Origin: Chiloscyllium plagiosum
Lineage: Eukaryota
DNA length: 36,187 nt
Reading direction: 5' to 3'
NCBI RefSeq assembly: GCF_004010195.1
Contig: NC_057718.1
Span: 81,792,028-81,828,214 of the forward strand
Below, piece after piece: positions 3,601 through 33,212 of this stretch (position 1 is the stretch's first letter; every line of letters starts with the position of its first letter). The notes under the pieces were generated by a model. It saw nothing but the letters and a program-made list of their open reading frames with translations, ran no database searches and was not told the origin of the DNA. The translations under genes were made by a program, and so were the position numbers.

Positions 3601-4587
3601 TTTTCATACATGAAGAGTGATGTATTCCTAATCCAAGCCAGTGCCTAAATTGAGCCTTAGACTATGGTTACATTAACTGGACCTCAACATGTTTCAGACT
3701 TACCCAATAGAGTGGGGCCATCAGGTGAATTGTGAAGTATTTCTGGTTCATTTGACTCCATGAGGACAGTTATGAATCTAAAAGTGAAATGATCCTTTTG
3801 TGGACAACTGCGGGAGAACAATCAGCTGAGCAAGCCTTGGTCTGTTCACATCAATGCCCAGTTGGGTAAAATGGTTCTGAACCAGGCATCAGTTTCTCAT
3901 TGACATATGGAGGATGTTATTAACCTCAGCATTTCCTAAAAGGTCAGCATTACCCCACTCTCAGCTGACATCCATCATTCTCTGACTTCCTTAGTTTTCT
4001 ACTACACTGTACTTTTCTGATCAACACATCTCGCAGTTTCATTATCCCTTTCCCTCTAGGCATTTCCTCAGATTTACACTTGAACAGTCCCCACTCAGAG
4101 CCAACCTCATCCGTATTGCCCTCTTGTACCCATCCCAATCCATCCCTCACAGTCACGTTTCTCAACAAACTTTTCACACTCAGAAGAACTCTCAACTTTC
4201 CGTCATTTAAGGAGAAGACTCAAAAGGGAAACACATTGTGAATGGTGTTCTCATTTGCCTTTTGCAGTGAAAGAAAGAAGTTATTTGAATGTCTTATTCT
4301 CAGGATTTGTCACATGGTCCAGTCACCACGAGTGGTGAGATAGCTTCATGGAGACGATGGGCTGGCTGACAGTGAGAATCAATTGTGTCTCCAAGGGCAA
4401 TGGGCCTTAGATTTTCCAATGGTATTTTCAGAGACCCAATACACACACGCAGGAATAAAACACAGAACTGTGGATGCTGGAAATCTGAAGCTTTCAGCAC
4501 AGCTAACACATGTTTACCCACTCATAGTCCCTATTAGTGCCTATCTAGTTATTTTTCCCTCCTGGAATATTATCAACAAACCCTTTT

Positions 4588-4702
4588 GAAGTGCCTCCAC
4601 AGAGGCCAGTACCCCTTTAATTACACATGAACAGCCCCTGACACTGATCCAGCTCCCGCAGAACCAGTTCTCAGAGTGAACAGAAGCTCTGACACTCATG
4701 TC
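4588..4702 (-). mobile_element. 3' part of a Gypsy-type LTR (family A); insertion target of Tx1 copy 1
   Basis: Similar to 6003-6120 (gacactgatccagctccc.caga.ccag.tctcagagtga) and to the LTR end at 30025-30100. Ends ...CA on the minus strand. Confidence 0.6.
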
Positions 4703-5770
4703 TTTTTTAACTTTTTTTCCCCACACTGCCGCCTAACTGCGGTAGTGCTTATTTATTCCCCCAGCACCCATGTTGTGTGTGTGCAGGTATGAGACACAGT
4801 GAGAGACACAAGGTGCATGAATCTTTATTCAAATTTCCACCACCAGGAAGCAAAGAGACATCTGAGTGGCCAGTGACAAGCAGTGCCCTTCACATCAAAG
4901 GGCAATGCTGCATGATCAAACAGGGAAGGGGTGGGCAGGGATTAAATCAAAATAGAGTTGGAGGGGGAAATAATACACTATGACCAGCACTCGACTCCTG
5001 TAAGACAGCACTCGGCGCAGTCCTGTCCAGCGGCCTAGGCAATCCGAGACATTGGCCTCCAGCTCCTGCCAGTTGGCCAGCCAGGATTCCTCAGCCGGGT
5101 TGAGGTAGACCCCCAGGTAGAGGAGGTGGTACTCCAGCTGAACCCCGTAACTCCTCCGGCAGGGAGTCCACCCGCCACAGACCGACCAGTAGTCCGGAAC
5201 ATTTGGCACAGTTGATCCTGGCGGAAGACGCTGCCGAGTACACGGCCTGGCATTCGTGCATCCTGTGAAGAGCACGTCGTTGGCGTAAGCTGAGAGGACC
5301 ACCTCTGTGCCCGCATCGTGTAGAACCAGCCCCGCCAACACAGGAAAGGCTCCACACACAGGGAATACAGCTGGCCGGACAGGGGGCAGCCTTAACATAC
5401 TCCTCTCCCAAAGCGAAGGGGCGCCTTCAGGGACCCGTTAACTTTAACCAGATACTCTGCAGTGGTGTACAAAAGTCAGATTCGGGCAACGAACTGCATC
5501 CTGAACCCAAATGCCCACAGAATCCCGAGCAGGTACTATTGATCGACCCTGTTGAACGTCTTCTCTTAGTCGAGAGAGAGGAAGGCGCTCGGCAGACCAG
5601 CCCGTCGACAGAAACGGATCAGGTCCCGGACCAGGTGGACATTATCATGTATCCTCCAGCCCAGGAGCATGTAGGACTGGTCCAGGTGAATCATGTGGGC
5701 CAGCATGGAGGCCAGGCGAGAAGACAACACTCTGGTGAAGATTTTATAGTCTGTGCTGAGGAGGACACTC
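4703..5770 (-). mobile_element. Tx1-clade non-LTR retrotransposon copy 1: 5'-truncated, internally deleted ORF2 (RT fragments), 3' UTR, A-rich tail
   Basis: LLSTDYKIFTRVLSSRL..IHLDQSY, LSAYAND, YLGVYL and LSYRSRVLVI joined directly to the last ORF2 codons. Stop at 4942-4944; 3' UTR shared with copies 2-4; T-run from 4703. Confidence 0.85.
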
Positions 5771-6024
5771 CTATTTATTTTTTTTTTCCCTTTTTATGTA
5801 TCTCTCTCTCATCACCACTGAAATCCAGTATCCCGTCACCCAGCCCAGGAGCATGTAGGACTGGTCTGGGTGAATCATGTGGGCCAGCATGGAGGCCAGG
5901 TGAGAAGACAACACTCTAGTGAAGATTTTATAGTCTGTGCTGAGGAGGACACTCCTATTTATTTTTTTTTTCCCTTTTTATGTATCTCTCTCTCATCACC
6001 ACTGAAATCCAGTATCCCGTCACC
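5656..6024. repeat. 184-bp tandem duplication (5656-5839 / 5840-6024)
   Basis: Two near-identical units, each containing a Tx1 RT piece, gacactcctatttat(10), and the PBS/LTR end. Confidence 0.9.
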
Positions 6025-6120
6025 ACGTCATCCTTCATTTACATATGGACAGTCCATGACACTGATCCAGCTCCCTCAGAGCCAGCTCTCAGAGTGAGAG
6101 GACGCCTGACCCTCCTGTTC
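5990..6120 (-). mobile_element. Gypsy-type LTR 3' part plus PBS-like sequence (family A)
   Basis: Minus strand ...gtgacgggatactggatttCA-GTGGTGATGAG has the same layout as the LTR/PBS junction at 30011-30060 (...gttattttA-GTGGTGACGG). Confidence 0.65.
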
Positions 6121-6366
6121 TTTTTTTATTTTTTTTAAAACCACCCCCCACACTACCATCTAACTGCGATAGTGCTTATTTTTTCCCGAGCACCTATGTT
6201 GTGCGTGTGTGGGTATGAGACAGTGAGAGACACAAGGTGTACAAATCTTTATTCAATTTCCACCAGCAGGAAGATAGGAAAACACCCAAGTGGCCAGTGA
6301 CAAACACTGCCCTTCACATCAAAGGGCAATGCTGTGTGATCAAAACAGTGAAGGGGAGGGTACGGA

Positions 6367-8114
6367 CTAAATCAAAATAGAGTTGGAGGGAGAAATGATG
6401 CACTCCACTCCCTGCGGCGCCCACCTCTCCCTGAACAACTCCAGGGTGTTGGTAGACACCGCGTGCTCCTTCTCCAAGGACACCCGGGCTCTAACGCAAG
6501 AGGGGCAGGCAGTTGGCCCTAACGATCCCCTCCACGGCCCGCTGCCTGGATCTGTTGATGGCCAGTTTAGCCAGGCTCAGGAACAGACCCACAAGGAGGT
6601 CTTCAGACCTGCCCTCCCTCCTCCGTACCGGGTGCCCGAAGATCAGGAGCGTGGGACTGAAGTGCTGAGGAGGGAGACCGGACGCCAGTTCTTCAAAGGT
6701 CTTCCTTCTTTGGCAGCAGGACGATGACCGCCCTGCACCAAGAAAGGGGCAGCTCTCTGGCATTTAGACACTCCCCCAGGACCTGTGCATAGTCGCTCCC
6801 CAGGACGTCCCAGAACGCCCTGAAGAACGCCACAGTCAGCCCGTCCAGCCCCGGGGACTTGCCCCTCGAGAGCGCCGGTCAGCTCCTCTAAAGTGACAGG
6901 AGCGTCGAGCCTTCCGGCGTCCTCCGGGCTAAGCTGCGGCAGGTCCTCCCACAGAACTCTGCGAGCATCCTCGCTGGACGGATCCGGAGAGAACAGAGCC
7001 ATGTAATAGTTTCGGACGTGGGCCCTGATACCCTNNNNNNNNNNNNNNNNNNNNNNNNNNNNNNNNNNNNNNNNNNNNNNNNNNNNNNNNNNNNNNNNNN
7101 NNNNNNNNNNNNNNNNNNNNNNNNNNNNNNNNNNNNNNNNNNNNNNNNNNNNNNNNNNNNNNNNNNNNNNNGGTCGAGCAACTCCCCGATCCTGGATTTC
7201 CGCCTCTTCGTCGACCCCCTTGCGTACTCCTGACAGAAGACGCGGACGTGAGCCTTGCCCACGTCCCACCATAGCCTCAGGGAGGGGAAGCTTCCCCGCT
7301 TCCTTCTCCAGCCGGCCCAGAAACGACGAAACGAGTCCCGGAACCGCTCGTCCTCCAGCAGCAGGTTGTTAAAGTGCCAGTACACGGAACCGAGCCTGGC
7401 GCTGAACGGAAGGAGTTCCGCCCACACCAGGTGGTGGTCCGTTCACGACACCTGCCGCGTGGAGGCCTTCGGAAAAAAGGAGGCATACGCCCGCGAAACA
7501 TACAGGCGGTCAATTCTGGACGTTCCGACCCCAGGCCTCACGAAGGTGAAGGCGATGGAGTCGGGATGGAGATTCCGCCAGACGTCCACCAGGTCAAAGG
7601 ACTTGACCAAGTCCCCCAACCTCCTCCCTGACGCCCAACCGGTGCAGGCACCGCCGTGGTCCCTGCCCTCGAGGACGCAGTTAAAATCTCCCCCGAGGAC
7701 GACGCACTGGTTCTCGTCGATGGAGGCGAGGTGAGCGGACACTTCTCCGAAGAAGCTCGCTTGCCTCGGCCCGGCCAGGGGAGCATAGACGTTCACCAAG
7801 TGAAGCACCGCGCCCCCCAGCCGAACCATCAGGTGAAGCAAACGGCCTGGCACAGGCTCCCTGACCCCCAAGACCTCTGGCTGAAAATGCAGGGCCAACA
7901 GGATAGCCACCCCACCAGATCTGCGGGTGAGGTGACTCATGTAGACCCCCCCTCACCACTCCAGGAGCCAGGTGGCTTCGTCTCCCGGGGTAGTGTGGGT
8001 TTCTTGCAGGAAGCACACCGCATACCTCCCGTCCCGGAGGCCCAAGAGGGTCTGGAATCTGCGCTGTGACTCCCTGCTGCCATTGATGTTGAGGCTGGCT
8101 ATAGTTGTCTCCAT
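6367..8114 (-). pseudogene. Tx1 ORF2 (APE endonuclease, start of RT, C-terminus), disrupted
   Basis: ATG at 8114: METTIASLNING..FLQETH..VNVYAP..GGDFNC..SRIDR..DHH (APE); WHFNN.LL, WWDVGK; KSPGLDG, NWRPVSLL (RT start); then a jump to HFSPTLLIFG..AKLAI. In-frame stops near 7953 and at 7443. Confidence 0.9.
7035..7171. other. Assembly gap (137 N)
   Basis: Run of n. Confidence 1.
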
Positions 8115-8169
8115 GTCGGAAGCATTGTGCAACCACCACCAGTACAGTTAAAAACCTATATATACACAT

Positions 8170-10497
8170 TTACTGGGTGGACGAGGGAGGGGCACAGATG
8201 TCCCTCGCCCTCACCAGGAGTGTCCCCAGGAAGTTCCTGATTCGCTTTCACTCGTTCACGTTGAGCCCAGGCACCTGGCAAGCAGCGTGGGCCGACCAGT
8301 AAACTCTCTCAAATGAGCTCCAGCGGTCAAGCGCCAGTTGGGCTCTATCCAAGCGACTCAGTTTCCTCGACAAATTCCCGGAGTTCCTCGAGGGGGAGAT
8401 CAGTAGGGGGCACCGATCCCGAACCCTCCACCGGGAGGTCGCCCTCAGTCACCGACCCCTCCACCACCGAGAGGATGGGGGCTGGTCCGGCGCCACCAAC
8501 TGACCTCAAACCCCCGGTGACCCCACCCCCAGGGTCACCAGCGGTACCTTCCTCAGCACACCCCTTCCCGGATCGCCCTGAGTTCGGGTCACTGGGCGGC
8601 AGAGGCTCGGGGCCCCGCTCCCCTCCTGACACCGGGACACCTGGCTCCTCGGGGAAAAGGTCCTCCCCCAGGGCCAAGGCCCCCGGAAAAACAGTCTGGG
8701 AGGGAGGAGTGAGGATAACACCTTCCTTCCCTCCACCGCTCGACGACCCCGCAGAGGGTCCTCCGTTGTCGCCCGCACCACGGCCCATGTGGTTATTAAA
8801 GTCCTCCCCAGGGATTGGAGGAGTTGAGGCAGTAGGAGGCCCTGCTGTAGCCCCTGGGAGTTTGGGTAGGTCGGGCCACGGTGCAGGACAGTCAAGAGGC
8901 ACCATTGGCTCGTCCCCTGGAGAGGAGTAGCACTGCTGGAGTGTCTCTCTCCTCCAAGGGGCAGCATCTCTTCACCAGAGAGACAGGGAGGAATTTATGG
9001 GCCTTCCCCTCCCCGCCCGCCTTGGTGCTCATGGGGCCCGAGGCCCCTTCCTCCAGCCTTTCCCGGAATAAGATTGGCTGGGGGAAGACAGGGGGCGTGG
9101 CCAGGTTGGGGAGGGTCAGCCGTGTCACTTTCTGCCCTGCCCCTGGTTTATCAGGTGATGGTGGGGAGTCCAGTTCCCTTTTCGGGGCCCAGAGACACGC
9201 TCGCTGCAGGAGGTAGAGCAGCGGTGGTTCACCCCAGGTTAGTGATAGGGTGTGGCTGCGTGGGGCGAGGCTCAAGGGCAGGCGTTGAAGCCCCAGGGGT
9301 TTCTCTATCGGGATGTGGGGTGGATGTGGGGTCAGTGGGGCCAGGATCAGTTACGGGTTTGGGGGTCAGGGTTCCCGCGCCGGGGCGATGCTGGCACGGC
9401 CACAGGGGCATTGTCGTGCTGGGGCGGGGCAGGTCATGGGCCAGGTGTCGGGGAAGGAGATAGGGTGGTCTCCCCGTGGGCGGGCCTGACGCGTTGCGTC
9501 TTCTCGAGTGCCTTCTGACCGGCCGGACGCTCACCCCCCTCCCTGCCAGAGGCTGGAGCATTGAAAGCCTCCGGCTTAGCACCCGGTGCCGGGGCTTGTG
9601 GGGGAGGGGGAGGGGGAGTGGGTGCGGCGGCACCACCATCAGCTGTTGGCACAGGCTGGGCAGCCTTCTGGGTGGGGCAGTTTTCTCTAATGTGCCCCAC
9701 CTCGTGGCACAGGTGGCACCACACGCCACATTGAAAGCCTCCGGCTTAGCGCCCGGTGCCGGGGCTTGTGGTGTTGACTTTGGGGGAGGGGGAGGGGGAG
9801 TGGGTGCGGCAGCACCACCATCAGCTGTTGGCACAGGCTGGGCAGCCTTCTGGGTGGGGCAGTTTTCTCCAATGTGCCCCACCTCGTGGCACAGGTGGCA
9901 CCACACGCCATCCGCCATCCAGAAGGTGCAATAGGCCACGCCCTCGTGGAGGAGGGTGAAAGAGCCCTCGGTGACCTCCTCCTGGGCCAGGCAAATGAAC
10001 ACCTGACATCGGTAGGACTATATATGTCAGAGGGCAGGGTCCTTAAGACCGAGCAGGAGCGGTTGGACACCCGACCAGATTTGCCCCAGGGTGGTGAGGT
10101 GGGGGAGAAGGAGCTCGCTGGCAATGAAGGGCGGGACGTTGGAGATCACGACCCTCTGGGCCGTAACCTCCAGAGGGTCGATGGGCAAATGTGTCCCGCC
10201 CACAGTGAGCCCCTTCTCCACGGCCAGGTGGACCATCTGCTCGGTCTTTAGGAAAAAGACGGCCTTCCCCTACATCCGGGCCGCAGCGACGATGGCCAGT
10301 GGGCTGACCACACTAGCCATGACCTTGCTGCAGGCCTCGATGGTCATATTGGGGTGGGGATAGGCCTTTACCACCAGGCGTTTAGTTAAGTGCCTGAAGG
10401 GGGTCGTGGTTGCAGCCAGGTTTGGAGCAGCCGAGCCTAAGGCAGCGACTACCCCGGCATAGATGCGGCTGGGCCCCGCGACCTTCGGGCTCACCAT
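8170..10497 (-). pseudogene. Tx1 ORF1 (gag-like, CCHC zinc knuckle, Pro/Gly-rich C-terminus), disrupted
   Basis: MVSPKVAG...AARM*GKAVFFL...RVVISNVPPFI...L*HI*SYRCQVF...CHLCHEVGHIGENC. Nonsense codons and frameshifts; 3' end approximate. Confidence 0.85.
9559..9910. repeat. Tandem duplication of the ORF1 zinc-knuckle segment (170 bp + 182 bp)
   Basis: cattgaaagcctccggcttagc starts at 9559 and 9729. The second unit has a 12-bp extra segment. Confidence 0.9.
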
Positions 10498-10519
10498 ACT
10501 CTGCTGCTGGATGTTGGTG

Positions 10520-11120
10520 TGCCCCAGGCAGCAGCGGTGGAGGTGGGCCTCTGGCAGCAGCAGTGGCGGAAGTCGCGGGGTGGTGCCCAAGGTGAGTCCC
10601 AGGCAGCGACGGTGGAGACCAGCCTCAGGCAACAGCAGCGGTGGAGGCAGGCCTTGGGCGAGTCCCAGGTAGGACCTTAGTCGCAGCGGTGCAGGCAGAC
10701 CTGTTGGGGAGGGTCCCCAAGGAAAGTCCCAGGCAGCAGCAGTGGAGGTGGGCCTCCAGCAGTGGCAGTGGTGGAGTTTGTGGGGTGGGGCCCAAGGCGA
10801 GTTCCAGGCAGCGGTGGTGGAGGCAGGCCTCTGGCAAGTCCTAGGCAGGCCCTTGGTCGCAGCGGTGGGGGCAGACCTGTTGGGGAGGGTCCCCAAGGCA
10901 AGTCCCAGGCAGCAGCAGTGGAGATGGACCTCTAACAACAGCAGCAGTGGTGGAGGTCCTGGGAGGGGCCCCAAGGCAAGTCCCAGACAGCAGCAGTGAG
11001 GCAGGCCCCAAGCAGCAACAGCTGAGGCAGGTCTGGGCGGGGTCCCAGAGACCAGCAGTGGGAGTGGGCCCCAGGTCAGCAGCAACACTCCCTTGACCTG
11101 GGTGAGGCCCAGGCTGCAGC
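10520..11120. repeat. GC-rich degenerate tandem repeats in the Tx1 5' UTR
   Basis: Recurrent cccaaggc(a/g)agtcccaggcagcagcagtggagg sub-units. gcagacctgttggggagggtccccaagg recurs about 177 bp apart (about 10695 and 10871). Confidence 0.8.
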
Positions 11121-11249
11121 TCCAAAAGTAGGCCCCAGACTCAAAAGCTCTCACCTTCTTCTTCCTTCTTCTCTCTCGCTGTGGGGCAGCTGATCCAAGG
11201 ACAGTCCCCGTCAAGGAGAGCGCACACACACACACTGATCCAACTCTCA

Positions 11250-13247
11250 ATAGGGAAAACACCCAAGAGGCCAGTGACAAACACTGCCCTTCACATCAAA
11301 TGGCAGTGCTGTGTGATCAAAACAGTGAAGGGGAGGGTAGGGACTAAATCAAAATAGAATTGGAGGGAGAAATGATGCACTCCACTCCCTGCGGCGCCCA
11401 CCTCTCCCTGAACAACTCCAGGGTGTTGGTGGACACCGCGTGCTCCTTCTCCAAGGACACCCGGGCTCTAACGTAACCGCGGAAGAGGGGCAGGCAGTCG
11501 GCCCTAACGACCCTCTCCACGGCCCGCTGCCTGGACCTGTTGATGGCCAGTTTGGCCAGGCCCAGGAGCAGACCCACAAGGAGGTCTTCAGACCTGCCCT
11601 CCCTCCTCCATACTGGGTGCCCGAAGATCAGGAGCCTGGGACTGAAGTGCAACCAAAAGCACTTTGAGAAAATCAAAAAGGGAGTGCAAACGCCCACACG
11701 CAATATACACATGGTCCACGGACTCCACAGCGCCACAGAACAAGCAGTTAGGCTGGGACACCGTGAACCACCGCAACCTGCGGTTGCAGGGGACTGCTGC
11801 GTGCAGCACCCTCCACCCCAGATCCCCGAGAGAAAGGGGGAGGACTCCTGCGTAGAGAGCCCTCCACTGGGGATCCCCACCGCCCGGTGGCAAATGGGCA
11901 CGTCAAGGCGTGTCCGGACAGTGGATGAGGGAGAAGAGGTGGACGGTGTGCAGCAGCAGTCTATACAGAGCCCGCCTTTTTTTACATCCTTGAAAGGGAC
12001 AAAATTAAAATTTCGGAGGCGGCTCAGGTTGTGGGGCACATGCTCCGCAGGAAGTACGGGACCTTGGGGCCAATGTGAAATTCCGTCCAGGCTGGGGTGA
12101 GCGTGGACAGGATCCCACCGCACACCTGAGCGTCCTCCAACTGGTGCACTAAGTCAGGTCCGAGCACCACCGTTTTAAGGCATCGGATGGCGGTGGCCAC
12201 GTACCGGACGTCTACCGCTGCCCTGCTCGCTATGTCCTGCTGCAGCGTCCAGCCCAGGCCCCCGGCACCCAGCACGTCCTCGACCCTGGTCACCCTCGCC
12301 GCCACGGACCTCCCCTCCGACAGCCACTCGATTCCTGAGCAATGGCTCCCTGACGACAGCCGCTACTCCAGCCGGAGGGTAGGCATGGCGCGATTTGACC
12401 ATGTTCAAGACAGTGATCAGGTCCTGGTAAAAGACAGGCAAAGTCTTGAGGGCGACCTCCAAACTGTCACGGTCGACGAACAGGATCTGCGTGTCGTAGT
12501 TGAGGTTTCGCACCTGGTGGAAAAAAAATACGTCGCCAGGGCGCACCACCTAGGAGGCGGCTTGACGTAAAGATATTGCTGCAAGGTCCGAAGGCGGAAT
12601 GTCGTGACCTGGGTGTGGATGCACACCAGCGACTGACCGCCCTCCTCAATAGGGAGACTCAGAACCTGCGCAGCGACCCAGTGCATCTTTTTGTCCCAGA
12701 AGAAGTCGACCAACGTTCTCTGGATGTCAGCGACAAAGCCAGGAGTAGGGACCTAAGTGACCAGCCGGTACCACAGCATGGCGGCCACCAGCTGGTTTAT
12801 GACCAGCACTCTACTCCTGTACGATAGCACTCGGAGCAGTCCTGTCCAGCGGCCTAGGCGAGCCGAGACTTTGGCCTCCAGCTCCTGCCAGTTGGCCGGC
12901 CAGGATTCCTCAGCCGGGCTGAGGTAGACCCCCAGGTAGAGGAGATGGTGGTACTCCAGCTAAACCTCCGTAACTCCGGCAGAGAGTCCACCTGCCACGG
13001 ACCGATCCGTAGTCTGGAACATTTGGCCCAGTTGATCCTGGCGGAAGACGCTACCAAGTACACGGCCTGGCACTCACGCATCCTCCCCAGGTCAGCCGGG
13101 TCGGTGAAAGTGAGGAGCATGTCGTCAGCGTAGGCAGAGAGGACCACCACTGTGCCCGCGCCACGCAGAACCAGCTCAGACAACCACCTCCGCAAGAGGC
13201 GCAGGAAAGGTTCCACGCACAGGGAATACAGCTGGCCGGACAGGGGG
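11250..13247 (-). mobile_element. Tx1 copy 3: 5'-truncated ORF2 (RT C-terminal half, zinc-binding domain) with partial 3' UTR
   Basis: PLSGQLYSLCVEP, LSAYADD, INWAKC, VDFFW, LPIEEGG, CLFCGAVESVDHVYIAC; stop at 11344-11346; frameshifted. Confidence 0.9.
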
Positions 13248-13291
13248 ACTGCTATTTATTTTTTTTTTATCAAAACAGTGAAGGGGAGGGT

Positions 13292-13664
13292 ATTTTGTTT
13301 TTAAATATATTAACCCCCACACTACCACCTAACTGTGGTAGTGCTTATTTTTTCCCAGCACCCATGGTGTGTGTGTGTAGGTGTGAGACAGTGAGAGACA
13401 CAAGGTGTACGAATCTTTATTCAATTTCCACCACCAGGAAGAAAGGAAAACACCCGAGTGGCCAGTGACAAGCAGTGCCCTTCACAAAAGGCAGTGCTGT
13501 GTGATCAAACAGTGAAGGGGAGGGTAGGGATTAAATCAAAATAGAGTTGGAGGGGGAAATAATACACTCCACTCCCTGCAGCGCCCACCTCTCCCTGAAC
13601 AACTCCAGGGTGTTGGTGGAGACCGCGTACTCCTTCTCCAAGGACACCCGGGCCCTAGTGTAAT
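13292..13664 (-). mobile_element. Tx1 copy 4: short 5'-truncated 3' end
   Basis: Complete 3' UTR plus the last ~40 ORF2 codons (VSLEKEYAVSTNTLELFRERWALQGVECIISPSNSILI*). Confidence 0.85.
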
Positions 13665-17659: not shown

Positions 17660-18955
17660 TATAAGAGATAAGATTTATAATCTAGCAAGCAACAATTTGA
17701 TTTCAGATCGTCAACATGGTTTCATCAAGGGCAGATTGTGTCTCATAAACCTCTGAGTTTTTTTGAGAAGGTAACCAAGTATGTAGATGAGTGTAGGGCA
17801 GTTGATGTGGTATACATTGACTTCAGTAAAGCCTTTGATAAGGTTCCACATGGTAGGCTATTGGAGAAAATGCAGAGGCATGGAATTGATGGTGATTTAG
17901 CAGTTTGGATTAGAAACTGGCTTTCTGAAAGAAGGCAGCAAGTGGTGATTGATGTAAAATATTCAGCCTGGAGTCTGGTTACCAGTGGTGTGGCACAAGG
18001 ATCTGTTTTGGGACTACTGCTGTTTGTCATTTTTATAAAATTACTTAGGTGGATGGATTAGTAAATTTGCAGATGACACTAATGTCGGTGGAGTAGTGGA
18101 CAGTTTGGAAGAATGTCACAAGTTGCAGGGGGACTTGAATAAACTGCAGAATTGGGCTGAGAGGTGGCAAATGGAGTTCAATGCAGCTAAATGTGAGGTG
18201 ATGTACTTTGGGAAGAATAACAGGAAGGCAGAGCACTGGGTCAATGGAAAGATTGTTGGTAGTGTGGATGTGCAGAGGGATCTTGGAGTCCATGTACATG
18301 GATCCCTGCAAGTTGCCACCCAGATAGATAGTGCTGTTAAGAAGGCATACGGTATGTTAGGTTTCATTGGTAGAGGGATGGAGTCCTGGAGCTGCAATAT
18401 CATGCTGCAAAAATACAAAACGCTAGTGCGGCCACACTTGGTATATTGTGTACAGTTCTGGTCACCATATTTTGGGAAGGATGTGGAAGCATTGGAAAAG
18501 GTGCAGAGGAGATTTACCAGGATGTTGCCTAGTCTGGAGGGAAGGTCTTATGAGGAAAGGCTGCGGGATTTGAGGCTGTTTTCATTAGAGAAGAAGGTTG
18601 AGAGGTGACTTGAGACATACAAGATGATCAGAGTTTTAGATAGGGTAGACAGTTTAAGTCTTTTTCCTAGGATGATGACATCAGTTGTACGAGGGGGCAT
18701 AACTACAAATTGAGGGGTGATAGATTTAAGACAGCTGTCAGAGGCAGGTTCTTTACGCAGAGTGGTAAGGGCATGGAATGCCCTACCTGCCAATGTAGTT
18801 AACTCAGCCACATTAGGGAGATTTAAACAATCCTTGCATAAGCACATGGATGATGGGTTAGCGTAGGGGGATGAGCTGAAAATAATTCACAGGTCGGTGT
18901 AACATCAAGGACCGAAAGGCCTGTTCTGCGCTGTATTGTTCCATTTTCTATGTTC
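17660..18955 (+). mobile_element. CR1/HER1-like LINE B, 5'-truncated RT with 3' tail
   Basis: QHGF, YIDFSKAFDKVPH, SGVAQGSVLG, KFADDT, WQMEFN, RDLGV, LVRPHL; tail ...ctgtattgttccattttctatgttcta; frameshifted. Confidence 0.92.
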
Positions 18956-25322: not shown

Positions 25323-26680
25323 AATATTTTAGTAAACAAATTACAAAACAGTTTACGTTTACAGCTATATACAACAGCAATTTTACAAGAGAGAGGAGCA
25401 GCAAAGCTAGGCCCCAAACCCTACCATTCAACCAGTTTACAGGGAATGAGGACAAACCTCAAATCCCCATTCCACATATAAAAGACATCAAACATTTGTA
25501 CGTGAAAAGCTAATCCAGTTACATAAACACAGTGCATACAATACAGACCCAGCAAGCCCCCATCCCTCCCACCTTCCGGCCACTCTAAGGCAGCCCACCC
25601 CTACATACCTTCCAGCTCTGTCCACCTCATGCCCCTTCTAGTTCTCAGTCCACCCTGACACACCTATCGACCACCTCTAGGACATCCCATCTCGATTACC
25701 CCTTCTCAGGACAACAGCGCTCAGAACAGCCTACCCACCATCTGGCTCTCAGGGCAACTGGCATCAGGGGGTGGCCTACCCACCCTCTGGCTTTCAGGAC
25801 AGCTTACCAACCTTCACGTTCACAGGATGGCCTACCCACCCTCCAGCTCTCTGGGTGACAGTTTTCAGGACGACCCATGAGCCTCCCAGCTCACAGTAAG
25901 GCCTGTTAGACCCAGGGACTCAAGACAGTGCAGGTGATAGACCCAACAAACACCACAATACAGTTAATTACCAAAAAAACAGTCCAGATATAGAGTCTTC
26001 AAAATGTAGAGTCCATTCTCAGGAATGGAGTCCACTCCAGTTTGAGGTGCATTATCCAAAATGGAATCCACAAACTGCAGAGTCCACTCCTGAAGGCAGC
26101 AAATGCACAGCACCAGGTGTTCAGTCTCCATGGAGTCCTGGCCCAGCCTTGGAAAACTAGGCCTACTCACAGGAACAGTACATTGTACAGGTGCAGTTAA
26201 CTCATAGGAGTTTGGTCCACTCCTGAAGGAAAGGTCTTCTCCCAAACTCCAGGATACAGCAAGTACTCACCTCCCAGCACACATACAGGTGTTCAATCTT
26301 CAGAGGCCCAGTCCCAGGGCTAGGCCTCCCCACTGGAACAGCTCCTCTGGTAAAATGCCTGTCTTCCACAAAGGCTCAGTCCAAACACCAAAAACAGCGA
26401 GGATACATACAAAAAACAAAGGAAACTAGAGTCCAAGGGCTAAGCCCTACCACAAAATTAACATTGTCCTTTTCTCAGAGTAAAAAGAGTAACACACAGG
26501 CCGTAACCAGCCAGTGAAACAACAATCCCCTGATGAAAACTGAGTTACACCTGAAACACATTATGTGCATCAGGAGTTTAACAATCAGTCCTCACTAAAA
26601 GGAATGCCAGTTAACAAACTGGCTAAATAATACAGCCAATTCAGGAATCAGGTTTTTCCCCCCCTCCAAAAAAAAAGGAA
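25323..26680 (-). mobile_element. About 1.35-kb non-coding poly(A)-type element inserted in the Gypsy 3' LTR
   Basis: Its 3' ~290 bp is the reverse complement of 26704-27000; internal gcctacccacc repeats at 25725-25860; no recognisable ORF; 5' boundary approximate. Confidence 0.55.
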
Positions 26681-26703
26681 GCAGACACTAACAGTAACAC
26701 CAG

Positions 26704-27020
26704 AGGTGGGTAGGGGCGGGCTGCCTTAGAGTGGTTGGAAGGTGGGAGGGATGGGGGCTTGCTGGGTCTGTATTGTCTGCACTTTGTATGTAACAGTATT
26801 GTCTAATGTACAAATGTCATTGTCACTGTCTTGCCATAAGTGGAACTGGGATTTGAGGTTTGTCCTCATCTCCCTGTAAAACGGTTGGGGTTTGGGGCCT
26901 AGCTTTGTTGCTCCTCTCCCTTGTAACATTGCTGTCTCTTATGTACAGCTGTAAATGTTTTTTGTAAACTGTTTGTTTGTAATGTGTTTAATAAAATATA
27001 AATATAAACAGGGAAAAAAA
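26704..27020 (+). mobile_element. 5'-truncated retroposed copy of the same element with 14-bp TSD
   Basis: AATAAA near 26990, A-run, and AACAGTAACACCAG at 26690-26703 and 27021-27034. Confidence 0.8.
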
Positions 27021-27299: not shown

Positions 27300-29957
27300 C
27301 CAAACCATAGTCCGTCTCTTGCATCCATAGGACCTTGTGAGAATTTCATCCTCTTCTTCAGCCAGTAACGGTATCAAGGCTTTACTCAGGGCAATCACCC
27401 TTGCTCCCCACTGTAAAATGCTGTCCTCTACAGTGATCCAGTCTCACTGGGCCAGAAAGTTTTCAATCCTGATTGCGATGGCCCTTCTATACCCCCTATT
27501 ACCACCAGCTGTTTCAGTTTCACTTGTGCAGGATCTTCTTGTGTTCACAGTTGGATATTGTCACCGGTGCCTGGACGTATGTCAAGGAAGTTCAAAACCA
27601 AAAGGAATGTTCCGGGGAGGCACCACTGGTGGAATATCTGCCAGTGGGAGGCTGCTCAAGGTATCTGCATTAGTCATTTTGGCTTCCTGGATAATGTTCT
27701 AATTTGTACTTGTATGCACTGAGACTAAGGGCCTACACTGAATTCTACCAGAAGCTGTGGGTGTCACCACCTTGTCTTTCTTCAGTAGGCCTAGCAGGCT
27801 TTGTGATCCGTAACTATCACAAACTCCCATCTATAAAGATACTAGTGGAACCTCTGCACATCAAAGATGACCTCCAAACCTTCCTTCTCTATCTGGGTAT
27901 ATTTGCTTTCGGCATCAGCCAATGTCTGGGAAGCAGACGCTATCGGGTGTAGCTCTCCATTGGGCCACCGGTGAGCCAACACCACCCTGATACCATACGG
28001 GGAGGCATCGCATGTCAGCACTACCTCTCGCTTCTGATGGTAGTGATCAACACCTTAGATGGCAATAGCTGCATTTTCACTTTCCTAAATGCTACTTCTT
28101 GGCTGTGTGGCCACTTCCCTGTTTCAGGTGTAAGGGTGCCAAGATGGAGGCCAGGTTATGTATGAGTTTTCCATAATAATTCACAAACCCCAGGAAAGAC
28201 CAAAGCTCCGATACAGACCTGGGAGCTGGGGCTCCTTTGATTGCTCTCAATTTCTCTTCCAAATGGTGTAACTCAGTTTTGTCGACTCTGTAACCCAAGT
28301 AGGTCACTTGGGGGCACCCAAAACATACCATTTCACCTTCTAAGGTGTACGCCTGCCTGGGAGCACTTAAGCACTATGTCCTAGTCCTTCAAGTGCTCTT
28401 TATTGGCCTTCCCAGTTATTAGTACATCATCCAGATAAATGGCAACCTGAGGTACCCCTTGTAAAATGTTCTCCATGGTCGCTGGAAAAGGGCACAGGCT
28501 GGTGATACCCCAAATGGCAGTTGTGTATACTGATCTCAACACTGATGGGTATTAATCGTAGCATACTTCTGGAACTCCTCATCCAGTTACAATTGCAGGT
28601 AAGCGTGGCTTATGTCCGGTTTTCTAAAAGATAGCCAATCCCCACCAACTCTGCATACAAGTCCTCTTTGAGAGGGATCAGTTGTTTATCCAGCTGTGAG
28701 AAGCGGTTTACCATTTGCTTTAAAATCCCCACAAGGGCAAACTGAGCCCTCAGGCTTCAGTATTGGTATGACCAGTGCTGCCTGTTCTACAAACTACCCT
28801 GGTTGATGATTATTTCGTTCTTCAGCCTCCTGATTTCTGCCTCTACTTTTACCCACACGGGAAATGGCACCAGGTGGGCCTTGAAAAATCTTGGAATTTC
28901 TTCCTGGTCAACATGTACTGTGGCTTTGGGCCCTTTGATAGTTCCAAACCCTTCCTGAAAAATGCCTGGGTATTTCACTAGGACTTCACTGAGGCAGCCA
29001 TTTTCCAATCGAAAACTTTTGAGCCAATCCAGGTGACTCTTTCTCAACCAATTCCACCCCAATAGGCCTGGGCCTGAACCTTTTACTACCATCACTGGTT
29101 ACTGCACCAACTGCTTCTCATTGGAGACTGGAGCTGAAGTCATACCCTTAACCTGCACTGGTTCCCCAGTGTATGTCCTCAGTTCGGCTGAAGTCTTGTA
29201 CCAGCTTAAGGGTTAGAGTCCTGAGCGAATTTTGTGAAAGACAGATTCGCAATCACAGGTACAGCTATGCCAGTATCGAACTCTGTGGGAACTGAGTGAC
29301 CATTTAACCAAATGTTAATTTTGATCAGTTCTGGTTTGGATGTTGCTCAGCAATTTAATTGTTCTGACCCACGTGTAAGGGGACTTTCCAGGGTTTGCAC
29401 TCTCCTGAGTACCAGCCTACGAGTTTTGTTACCCAAGTCAGGCCTTGCAGGGCTCTTTTGCTGTCTCTAGTGACAAGACCAGTTGCAGTGCCTGTTTGAA
29501 GTCCAGTTGGGCATCAGCTAGTAGGCATTTCTGAATGGTTATGTCATTAATCCCACATACCAAATGGTCACTCAGCATCTCACTCAGAATTATCCCAAAG
29601 TCACATGCCTCTGCCTGTCCTCTCAAACATGTCAAAAATCTTGGTATGGATTTCTCCTGGTTCTCTAACAGCCAAATAAAACCGACAACGTCTCAGAATT
29701 AGAGGACATTTGGGATCATCATACGCCTTAACCAACACCATCAGCTTTTGGAGGGTTTTAGTGTCTGGCGCCTCTGGGAATGTTAAGCCCCTTATAATTG
29801 AAAATGCTGCGAGTCTTCAAGCAGTCAGAAGGATTACTTGTTGCTTTTCATCTGTCTCAGTGTCACTTGCCCGAAATAAAAATCACATTCTTTCCACATA
29901 CTGGGCCCAGTCTTTGACAGCAGGATGAACTGAGTCAAGCTTGTCAATTAGAGGCAT
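27300..29957 (-). pseudogene. Gypsy gag-pol remnant (gag, protease, RT, RNase H; integrase largely missing)
   Basis: MPLIDKLD..DWAQYVER; ACDFG...DHLVCGIND (gag); EFDTG (protease); LLGWNWL; IYLDDVL near 28430; YLGY; SFLGFVNYY; TCDASPYG (RNase H). Many stops. Confidence 0.85.
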
Positions 29958-30024
29958 AAAGCTAGAAATACTAACCCCAACAACTGCTGTTGTTCAGGCG
30001 CTTTCTGTTTTCTCCCGTCACCAC

Positions 30025-30250
30025 TAAAATAACTGCACTGAGGTTGGTACCCCGTCACCAAGTCACCCTTTGTTTACTTGTACACAGTACACTGGCTGTG
30101 ACCAGCCAGCTAGGAGTCAGTCTCCTGAACAGAGAAGATTCTAATCTTCTGGTTATTTTGGTCAGAGAGTGCTTTCCTGATCGGCCCAGGTTAACAACCG
30201 CAAACAATGACCCCATAGTCAATGAGGTCTATCTGCTTCCAATCACGACA
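30025..30250 (-). repeat. Gypsy 5' LTR (226 bp, uninterrupted)
   Basis: TGT start, followed by PBS-like sequence and gag; homologous to the 3' LTR pieces. Confidence 0.85.
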
Positions 30251-31753: not shown

Positions 31754-33212
31754 CTTAAGGAGAAATTGTGGATGCGTTGGTGATTATTTTCCAGAGTTCG
31801 ATAGATTCGGGATCAGTTCCTGCGGATTGGAGGGTGGCTAATGTTGTACCACTTTTTAAGAAAGGAGCGAGAGAGAAAATAGGAAATTATAGACCAGTTA
31901 GTCTGACCTCAGTGGTGGGAAAGATGCTGGAGTCTATTATAAAGGATGAAATTACGACACATCTGGATAGTAGTAACAGGATAGGTCAGAGTCAGCATGG
32001 ATTTATGAAGGGGAAATCATGCTTGACTAATCTTCTGGAATTTTTTGAGGATGTAACTCTGAAGATGGATGAGGGAGAACCAATAGATGTAGTATACCTG
32101 GACTTTCAGAAAGGTTTTGATAAAGTCCCACATAGGAGGTTAGTGAGCAAAATTAGGGCGCATGGTATTGGGGGCAAAGTACTAACTTGGATTGACCAGT
32201 GGGGTACCGCAGGGATCAGTACTGGGACCGCAGCTTTTTACAATATATGTTAATGATATAGAAGATGGTATTAGCAATAACATTAGCAAATTTGCTGATG
32301 ATACTAAGCTGGGTGACAGGGTGAAATGTGATGAGGATGTTAGGAGATTACAGGGTGACCTGGACAAGTTAGGTGAGTGGTCAGATGCATGGCAGATGCA
32401 GCTTAATGTGGATAACTGTATGGTTATCCACTTTGGTGGCAAGAACAGGAAGGCAGATTACTACCTAAATGGAATCAATTTAGGTAAAGAGGCAGTACAG
32501 AGAGATCTGGGTGTTCTTGTACACCAGTCAATGAAAGTAAGCATGCAGGTACAGCAGGTAGTGAAGAAGGCTAATAGCATGCTGGCCTTCATGACAAGAG
32601 GGATTGAGTATAGAAGCAAAGAGGTTCTTCTGCAGCTGTATAGGGCCCTGGTGAGACCACACCTGGAGTACTGTGTGCAGTTCTGGTCTCCAAATTTGAG
32701 GAAAGACATTCTGGCTATTGAGGGAGTGCAGCGTAGGTTCATGAGGTCAATTCCTGGAATGGCGGGATTACCTTACACTGAAAGACTGGATGAATGGACT
32801 TGTATACCCTTGAGTTTAGAAGACTGAGAGGGGATCTGATTGAGACATAAGATTACGAAAGGATAGGACAATCTGGAGGCAGGAAACATGTTTCCGCTGA
32901 TGGGTGAGTGCCGAACCAGAGGACACAGCTTAAAAATACGGGGTAGACCATTTAGGACAGAGATGAGGAGAAACTTCTTCACCCAGAGAGTGGTGGCTGT
33001 GTGGAATGCTCTGCCCCAGAGGGCAGTGGAGGCCCAGTCTCTGAATTCATTTAAGAAAGAGTTGGATAGAGCTCTCAAGGATAGTGGAATCAAGGGTGAT
33101 GGAGATAAGGCAGGAACAGGATACTGATTAAGGATGATCAACCATGATCATATTGAATAGTGGTGCAGGCTCGAATGGCAGAATGGCCTACTCCTGCACC
33201 TATTGTCTATTG
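31754..33212 (+). mobile_element. CR1/HER1-like LINE, 5'-truncated, relatively young RT plus tail
   Basis: DWRVANVVPLFKKG, NYRPVSLTS, QHGF, YLDFQKGFDKVPH, SGVPQGSVLGP, KFADDTKL; short deletion with frameshift near 32192; tail cctattgtctattg. Confidence 0.95.

Follow-up and report, generated by a model that had tools for sequence, protein, structure and literature searches.

The question raised by this locus was whether a non-LTR retrotransposon of the Tx1 clade inserts preferentially at the TATA region of Gypsy LTRs. The locus lies in a 36,187-nucleotide stretch of Chiloscyllium plagiosum contig NC_057718.1 (the window, from whose first letter positions are counted), and an earlier reading of its letters alone (the sequence-only reading) had proposed such a target and believed it to be undescribed. 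Our main reading, to which we assign a probability of about 0.7, is that an element of the Tx1L lineage occupies one site, in the predicted TATA box of an LTR, in about half of the sampled loci, and that a 5' duplicate of its near-tail region likely joins new copies onto earlier ones. The type of target was already on record, for Kojima 2015 (PMC4494074) reports a preference for specific LTR retrotransposons in the crocodilian elements Tx1-8_Crp and Tx1-4_AMi. What appears new is a TART-like 5' direct repeat in this Tx1 family; a literature search outside Repbase Reports and the original Tx1L papers found neither a shark Tx1 target nor a Tx1 terminal repeat.

The Tx1 element and the anatomy of the window

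ORF2 of the element is 52% identical to that of Xenopus laevis Tx1L over 630 aa of APE and RT (100% of the query), and PF03372 and PF00078 both match within one natural 630-aa frame. In a quick tree of 24 rows, made without bootstrap, Tx1L and turtle proteins together formed its sister group (SH-aLRT 100). Similarity and tree placement support its assignment to the Tx1 clade, as had been proposed, and within it to the Tx1L lineage; of the RT/APE phylogeny against Repbase families that had been suggested as a check, the grouping with Tx1L was obtained, while the Repbase families themselves are absent from the tree. The endonuclease hairpin loop is about 3 residues shorter than in Tx1L. When two full-length loci and one LTR locus were compared with Rfam in search of a ribozyme or RNA head, the only matches were to two miRNAs, both sub-threshold; a second element likewise gave no ribozyme match.

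The features of the window are listed in Table 1. All pieces have a single orientation, that of the LTR, and the tails of copy 1 (4703) and copy 2 (the main element, 6121) meet the same LTR position, which falls on the TATA-like site when the flanks are aligned with two uninterrupted LTRs. The motifs A10-TAAATAGGAGTGTC (about 5765-5790) and A10-TAAATAGCAGTC are both present, the former twice within the 184-bp duplication, and their interpretation as target duplications was supported. Two pieces proved to be other than supposed. The putative third copy is tailless and represents the 5' repeat belonging to copy 2. The LTR piece that follows copy 2 (about 5976-6120) is itself a poly(A)-tailed insert; because a 13-bp deletion (common to loci L032 and L033) and neighbouring variants are found both in it and at loci on two further contigs, we conclude that it was RNA-borne and does not count as an independent resident LTR. 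An upstream (U3) LTR half is present neither next to the stack nor elsewhere in the window, as the sequence-only reading had cautioned. Since that LTR piece is a passenger brought in by retrotransposition, and the third copy is the head of copy 2, the window by itself is weak evidence for targeting. The 5' direct repeat had gone without mention in the sequence-only reading.

Table 1. Features of the stacked insertions in the window
Feature	Position	Strand	Remarks
Downstream (R/U5) half of 236-bp LTR	4587..4703	-	internally deleted, TTCA at end
Copy 1, 5'-truncated Tx1 piece	4704..5764	-	RT region, 3' UTR, A-tail; internal deletion of ~1.4 kb
184-bp tandem duplication	5656..6024	-	halves 97-98% alike; holds junction of PBS-like piece, A-tail, target duplication and copy 1 start; could be an assembly overlap
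LTR fragment, retrotransposed	5949..6120	-	TATA-like site, R, U5, PBS-like leader; own A-tail, then target duplication; polyadenylation signal mutated
Main element, unique 3' end	6121..6277	-	AATAAA, terminal 9-10-bp stem-loop (not strong: z = -0.8, -1.3, -2.2 in three copies), A-tail
3' copy of direct repeat	6278..6665	-	ORF2 end and ~90 nt of 3' UTR
Main element ORF2, broken	6662..8114	-	APE endonuclease (45% identity to Tx1L residues 1-321), assembly gap (7035-7171), RT start, then ~2-kb deletion
ORF1, frameshift-broken	8190..10497	-	ends approximate; CCHC knuckle read in translation, duplicated within 182-bp repeat; no match in Pfam search
5' UTR with internal repeats	10498..11253	-	two blocks collinear with LTR R in first ~45 nt
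5' direct repeat of main element (copy 2), 2 kb	11254..13247	-	no tail; ORF2 second half and 3' UTR start, fused to 5' UTR at family-wide junction
A-tail and target-site duplication preceding main element	13248..13270	-	A10-TAAATAGCAGTC
~25-nt 3' UTR fragment and copy 4	13271..13663	-	copy 4 of 350 bp, 5'-truncated and tailed; uppermost in the stack, with no LTR half past it

Target preference across the genome

The target repeats begin with TG, end with CA and are 214-238 bp long. Their 5-bp flanks matched with at most one mismatch in six of the nine copies whose ends were found (17 examined). One LTR pair lies 4.3 kb apart with an Integrase_H2C2 match, and L126 has RT_RNaseH upstream of an integrase-like frame; the LTRs are flanked by PBS- and PPT-like sequences, judged by eye, and a Pfam search gave no match for the RT core. 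By these structural criteria the target is classed as a Gypsy LTR retrotransposon. Its insertion site has a CCAAT upstream, an initiator-like TCACTC about 27-30 nt downstream and AATAAA beyond, a context from which we infer that the site is the predicted TATA box of the LTR.

Preference for this site was determined in 58 loci, two samples of 29 that were retrieved without use of flank sequence; the samples represent the best-scoring 40 of about 2700-2900 candidates, with a bias towards stacks. In half of the loci (29/58) the copies lay between both halves of the 236-bp LTR, which was split at the TATA-like site, and were in the LTR orientation. The first sample contained 12/29 such loci, or 15/29 after flank extension, and the independent sample 14/29, so that the proposal of one preferred site in one orientation held in both. 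In Kojima 2015 (PMC4494074) an element is target-specific when more than 20% of its flanks are one repeat type, a level that the both-half loci exceed. A count of 3' flanks in sampled loci, of the kind that had been proposed as a check, agreed: a 9-nt core, with at most one mismatch, followed 29/65 tails in 29 other loci and 3/104 control A-runs, and those three controls themselves belonged to the same two elements, as tails or junctions. This tail-then-core test gave only 9/29 in the second sample, because compound tails defeat so crude a test. Searches with exact patterns found 383 uninterrupted and 95 A-tailed sites in the genome; the reversed controls gave 0.

The sampled copies show poly(A) tails, 5' truncation and target duplications of 13-20 bp. 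Off-target copies (L011, L023, L024 and L027) carry private duplications of 13-17 bp, and so the LTR motif is not the element's own end. No LTR half was present within 1.5 kb in 18/58 loci, two of which were resolved later by flank extension; the preference is thus loose. Junction variants differed between loci and recurred within one locus. Taken together, these comparisons indicate a real preference for one LTR site, the TATA-like box.

It is rather unlikely that the element is simply a loose, L1-like nicker of T-runs that favours the site as open or bent DNA at the TATA box of an active LTR and does not read its sequence. That idea would accommodate the tolerance of the site for many variants and two LTR subtypes, as well as off-target duplications that begin in A/T-rich sequence and have little else in common; the shorter hairpin loop is also consistent with it, since this loop influences nicking profiles (PMC1950540). 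However, insertion is confined to a single position and orientation in the 236-bp LTR (the T-run of the LTR's own AATAAA lies outside this count), duplicated sites are re-used deep in stacks, far from U3, and nicking by Tx1L, the closest relative with a name, is sequence-specific in vitro (PMC1950540).

Stacked copies and the 5' direct repeat

At the 5' end of most near-full-length copies (29/35) stands a direct repeat of the ORF2 end and 3' UTR of the same copy. The junction is at one fixed point, the repeat ending about 20 nt before AATAAA, and the length of the repeat varies from about 20 nt to 2 kb, with a whole element in the L096-L113 dimer. In 3/35 copies (L114, L118 and L124) LTR sequence runs directly into the LTR-derived head; a shuffle test of the head-to-LTR likeness gave a clear result for no more than 2-3 of 6 heads. 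Splicing was rejected as the source of the junction, no GT donor following it (judged by eye). A fixed, SINE-like start of the short copies was also rejected: they begin at scattered positions, and in 17 loci the starts peak near one of these.

The 5' repeats differ from 3' copies no more than the 3' copies differ among themselves, and 5'-biased alleles are confined to about 55 nt next to the junction. Alleles of a 5' repeat agreed with those of its own 3' copy in 70/101 cases (permuted mean 0.56, p ~0.002), and mean divergence was 0.071 within an element and 0.092 to others. Near-identity within an element was not found: the own 3' copy ranked first for 2 of 16 5' repeats, and the two had rare alleles in common in 0/11. 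In L102, all eight rare alleles of the 5' repeat match the unit downstream of the element. Units with the same start had rare alleles in common in 13/50 pairs (15/20 of the shared alleles lying in the 5' half), compared with 189/11917 pairs between loci; a 5'-to-3' gradient of similarity between such units, the test for a long target duplication, was not significant in 14 loci (p = 0.5). Same-start units in L091, L106, L107 and L119 had diverged beyond expectation. These patterns suggest that templates of the 3' type serve to renew the 5' repeat.

Stacks and 5' repeats might instead be post-insertion products, either of unequal crossing-over in which target duplications or repeats paired or of a collapsed assembly; the short copies would then be solo repeats left by recombination. 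We consider this unlikely. Units within a locus do have the same 5' start more often (61/310 pairs, against 649/14568 between loci) and resemble one another more closely (median 0.063 vs 0.087), the head-to-tail dimer L096-L113 is joined via the repeat, starts of 5' repeats and short units are alike (KS p = 0.49), and many loci contain gaps. Yet tails and 3' alleles differ among the units of one stack, in L102 rare alleles are matched on either side of a whole element, contigs and subfamily variants all have one and the same junction, and unrelated passengers, with the local duplication, lie inside stacks.

Less probable still is a frozen accident, in which one chimeric master acquired a long piece of an upstream copy and its daughters inherited this with ordinary 5' truncation. 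The 5' repeats form no separate lineage, 5'-5', 5'-3' and 3'-3' divergences being alike, and lengths from tens of nucleotides to a whole element argue against a single inherited piece; the 5'-specific alleles next to the junction do indicate that part of the repeat is inherited, and coupling of a 5' repeat to its own 3' copy is only partial, both points in its favour.

In L003, L191, L201 and window copy 2 the motif after the tail results from transduction, not targeting. That the LTR-like segment is in general only the element's constant 3' end, or a transduction from a few masters, is hardly credible: dependence of this kind, which the sequence-only reading had allowed for, holds locally for these four and L033 (the copy 2 piece was carried in as RNA), and 11/58 loci have only the downstream half within 1.5 kb, but off-target copies are without the segment, uninterrupted sites exist in hundreds, and the loci with both LTR halves, the upstream one beyond any 3' transduction, refute it.

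Among the sources listed as carrying the element, none was labelled as RNA. One of two raw single-cell RNA runs yielded 1037 reads and the other none; the reads matched mainly the 3' UTR repeat and were sense to the element, the head reaching a depth of 2-4 with no start places or listed junction, and the start site is beyond such data.

Proposed cycle and comparison with known elements

In the cycle that we propose, insertion occurs at the TATA-like position and in the orientation described, with 13-20-bp target duplications. As in other APE elements, the endonuclease would nick the T-run that faces TATAAA on the bottom strand, and priming would be by poly(A). The site is restored by the duplication, and head-to-tail stacks of copies form with the local site variant at every junction. 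The heads of the copies carry LTR R sequence (3/35) or the non-terminal repeat. A short piece of the repeat (at least 30 nt) at the RNA start may let the cDNA, late in reverse transcription, anneal to matching 3' UTR and be extended for a variable length; its partner could be element RNA, in a template jump, or a copy already on the site, giving a long target duplication. The insert would be transcribed from the LTR promoter left upstream, and the repeat, free of a polyadenylation signal, could serve as an expendable buffer. The same machinery has left its signature around the second element, an mRNA retrocopy and LTR fragments; the second element and an Sm-protein retrocopy lie at the same LTR site, and transduced LTR fragments may seed new target sites. 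We suggest only tentatively that the whole amounts to a hyperparasitic LINE with an LTR-like cycle, which lands in the TATA box, uses that promoter, rebuilds its 5' repeat each round on its own 3' UTR (in RNA or the previous insert) and spreads its target by 3' transduction.

Tx1L (UniProt P14381) likewise inserts site-specifically into another transposon, the DNA transposon Tx1D (PMC1950540, PMC4494074). The present element differs in its target, an LTR TATA-like site, in looser specificity, in the shorter endonuclease loop and in the 5' direct repeat, none being found in the Tx1L literature outside the original papers. Tx1-8_Crp and Tx1-4_AMi, which PMC4494074 places with Keno and Tx1-Mar, are absent among the named ORF2 matches and were compared by description only; the main text of that paper describes for them no site within the LTR element, no stacking and no terminal repeat. 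In Drosophila TART, too, the 5' end copies a sub-terminal 3' segment, arrays are head to tail, and a template jump has been proposed for extending the 5' copy (PMC1636488). TART belongs to another clade and targets telomere ends; its repeats are perfect and include the ORF1 start, whereas those here contain the ORF2 end and the two copies within an element are not near-identical. R2 resembles the present system in target co-transcription and in 5' joining via strand invasion of target-homologous cDNA (PMC6895275), and an R2-type, target-derived leader may be a model for L114, L118 and L124. R2, in contrast, has an RLE endonuclease, an rDNA target and an HDV-like ribozyme; here no Rfam ribozyme matched and the homology lies downstream of the nick.

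How 5' joining occurs in APE-type LINEs is regarded as an open question (PMC6895275). With thousands of insertions on one known site, often atop earlier copies with traceable alleles, homology-primed joining becomes a question that the genome sequence alone can test. A terminal repeat of the TART type in a Tx1 element would represent an independent step of a LINE towards LTR logic. By splitting LTR promoters, such a LINE may silence Gypsy elements across the genome or exploit them, and through it mRNA retrocopies come to lie immediately behind a predicted LTR promoter.

The 3' region of the element was also present in contigs under four other organism labels. In one of these contigs the motif is followed by 18 nt of repeat and then by the head, a hint only, being below a 31-letter bridge; under two of the labels there were tail-to-motif joints with sides of 22-39 letters, likewise hints only.

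Preference for a site within a Gypsy-type LTR

The sequence-only reading had proposed that this Tx1 family inserts at a TATA-like site of a Gypsy-type LTR. Two genome searches were performed with the 3′ sequence of the element, excluding the flank; each gave the best 40 of approximately 2700–2900 candidates, and 29 loci outside the window were taken from each (58 in total). In the first sample, both halves of the LTR were present within 1.5 kb at 12 loci, one half at 4, and neither at 13, and lengthening the flanks added three loci with both halves. The corresponding numbers for the second sample were 14, 10, and 5. When the samples were pooled, 29 of the 58 loci, all drawn from best-scoring candidates and biased toward stacks and window-like copies, had both halves in the orientation of the element, which upholds the proposed preference for loci chosen without regard to the flank. 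Target duplications were approximately 13–20 bp long.

In the window, all of the motifs previously described were found, and alignment with uninterrupted LTR copies confirmed that the tails of copies 1 and 2 meet the LTR at one and the same position. Off-target copies carry their own duplications; thus, the LTR motif is not a constant end of the element, as had been considered. That objection fails for the family but bears on window copy 2, whose LTR piece was transduced: it shares a 13-bp deletion with loci L032 and L033 elsewhere in the genome and has an A-tail and a duplication of its own at its end. Locus L032, which runs on into pol remnants and then a second LTR, is a candidate source. 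The motif was also found between two tails at off-target loci L003, L191, and L201; LTR fragments also move as passengers. Because they travel, targeting is proven by the genome sample and not by the window alone.

The target LTR was sought with the flank of copy 2, giving 1665 first-look candidates. Uninterrupted copies were 214–238 bp long, ran from TG to CA, and contained CCAAT, the TATA-like GATATAAACAGG, and AATAAA; from the spacing we infer that the site would act as a TATA box. Both ends were found in 9 of 17 copies looked at, and the 5-bp flanks matched in 6 of these. One LTR pair 4.3 kb apart enclosed an integrase zinc-binding domain. At a separate locus an RNase H domain lay upstream of an integrase-like frame, which is the Gypsy order. 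The pol-like frame behind the diverged LTR in the window (see table) had no Pfam match. Locus L012 contains a small non-autonomous LTR element with a Tx1 stack in its second LTR.

Coordinates of features in the window and at sampled loci
Feature	Location	Strand or orientation	Description
Tx1 stack	window 4587–13663	minus	single, head-to-tail
2-kb deletion of copy 2	window 6662–6665		onset ~11 nt past the start position of copy 1 (5764), at 4-nt microhomology
Endonuclease hairpin loop	L122:4453–6342; window 7520–7570		~3 residues shorter than its counterparts in Tx1L and turtle relatives
RT fragments	window 17681–18608 and 31759–32827	plus	far from Tx1L (25% where matched)
Second element	window 25346–26994	two copies, opposite orientations	repetitive G-rich body, AATAAA, A-tail
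Diverged LTR of target group	window 28790–30235		uninterrupted, 68% to L056, upstream of pol-like frame
LTR pair	L012:277–2191		only ~860 bp apart, PBS-like sequence
Sm-protein retrocopy	L009:2260–2725		intronless, poly(A), LSM domain, one internal stop
Element dimer	L096 and L113 (G000:C18, 23.91–23.93 Mb)	head-to-tail	two full-length elements linked through the repeat

The Tx1 element and its head

Full-length copies are approximately 7 kb. The copy at locus L122 has a natural 630-aa frame with APE and RT domains. Among named proteins, Xenopus Tx1L ORF2 is closest to it (52% identity across the whole query); fish Tx1 proteins were approximately 40% identical. A quick tree of 24 rows, one with a very long branch, placed the element beside Tx1L and turtle proteins with an SH-aLRT of 100. 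We conclude that the family is real, site-preferring, and of the Tx1L lineage. The window copy is damaged by frameshifts, a gap, and the 2-kb deletion, which is possibly an assembly effect. We take the plus-strand RT fragments in the window to be, probably, CR1-type LINEs.

The first 45 nt of the head, the start of the 5′ UTR, contain two blocks collinear with R, the LTR region downstream of the TATA-like site; shuffle tests of this likeness gave mixed results (0, 1, 7, 27, 38, and 49 of 500). At L118 and L124 the TATA-like site, R, and the head follow one another without interruption, which suggests that LTR-driven transcription may have produced an ancestor of the element, much as rDNA-driven transcription is described for R2 (PMC6895275). 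No RNA start was seen in the one single-cell run with matching reads, in which depth over the head was 2–4.

The 5′ repeat

When the 5′ UTR by itself was used as query, 40 places were obtained, of which 34 were taken at 10 kb; five places on short contigs were excluded and the window was added (n = 35). In most matches 3′-UTR sequence lay immediately upstream of the 5′ UTR. This 5′ repeat, a direct repeat of the ORF2 end and part of the 3′ UTR, was detected by BLAST in 29 of the 35, including the window; of the other six, two had it by eye, three were joined directly to LTR sequence, and one was truncated. The repeats range from approximately 20 nt to 2 kb and end at a single junction approximately 20 nt ahead of AATAAA. 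The joint of the L096–L113 dimer has neither a tail nor a target duplication.

Apart from alleles within approximately 55 nt of the junction, the 5′ repeats form no distinct lineage. Each is coupled in part to the 3′ copy of the same element (concordance at 70 of 101 sites in 12 elements, p ~0.002) without being a perfect copy, and in none of 11 elements did the two have a rare allele in common. The unit behind the element shared 8 of 8 rare alleles of the 5′ repeat at L102, 2 of 4 at L107, and none at L097, L100, or L108. Rare alleles were common to 13 of 50 pairs of units with the same start, chiefly close to the 5′ end; an overall gradient test of same-start units failed. Unequal crossing-over is a possible origin of the repeat and same-start pattern. 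We read the repeat pattern in these sequences as homology-primed 5′ joining that would use more than one kind of template.

Repeats and a proposed template jump are described for TART in PMC1636488, PMC5537684, and bioRxiv 782904, and specific nicking for Tx1L in PMC1950540. The LTR target had been thought undescribed; the text of Kojima 2015 (PMC4494074) already reports crocodilian Tx1 families that prefer LTR retrotransposons, and gives no site within the LTR element. Our search of the literature outside Repbase found nothing on a TATA-like LTR site or a Tx1 terminal repeat. The target class is already known; the precise position, a 5′ repeat that appears to be renewed, and targets that move by transduction set this family apart.

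Stacks and passengers

Many loci contained several units, up to 13, with the local site variant repeated at every junction. The second element lay between both LTR halves at 8 of 29 loci (L129–L157) and beside one half at 9 more, and thus shares the Tx1 target genome-wide; one of its window copies adjoins a related LTR subtype at the TATA-like site. Similarity to ORF2 was sought in the window copies and at these loci and none was detected. It is likely a non-autonomous partner of the Tx1 family. The Sm-protein retrocopy, which we take to be SNRPE-like, sits in a stack with the local target duplication on either side. Short inserts at L003, L020, L021, and L022 consist of the 5′ repeat, a stretch of 5′ UTR (26–89 nt), and then an A-tail, and appear to be retrotransposed head transcripts that ended prematurely.
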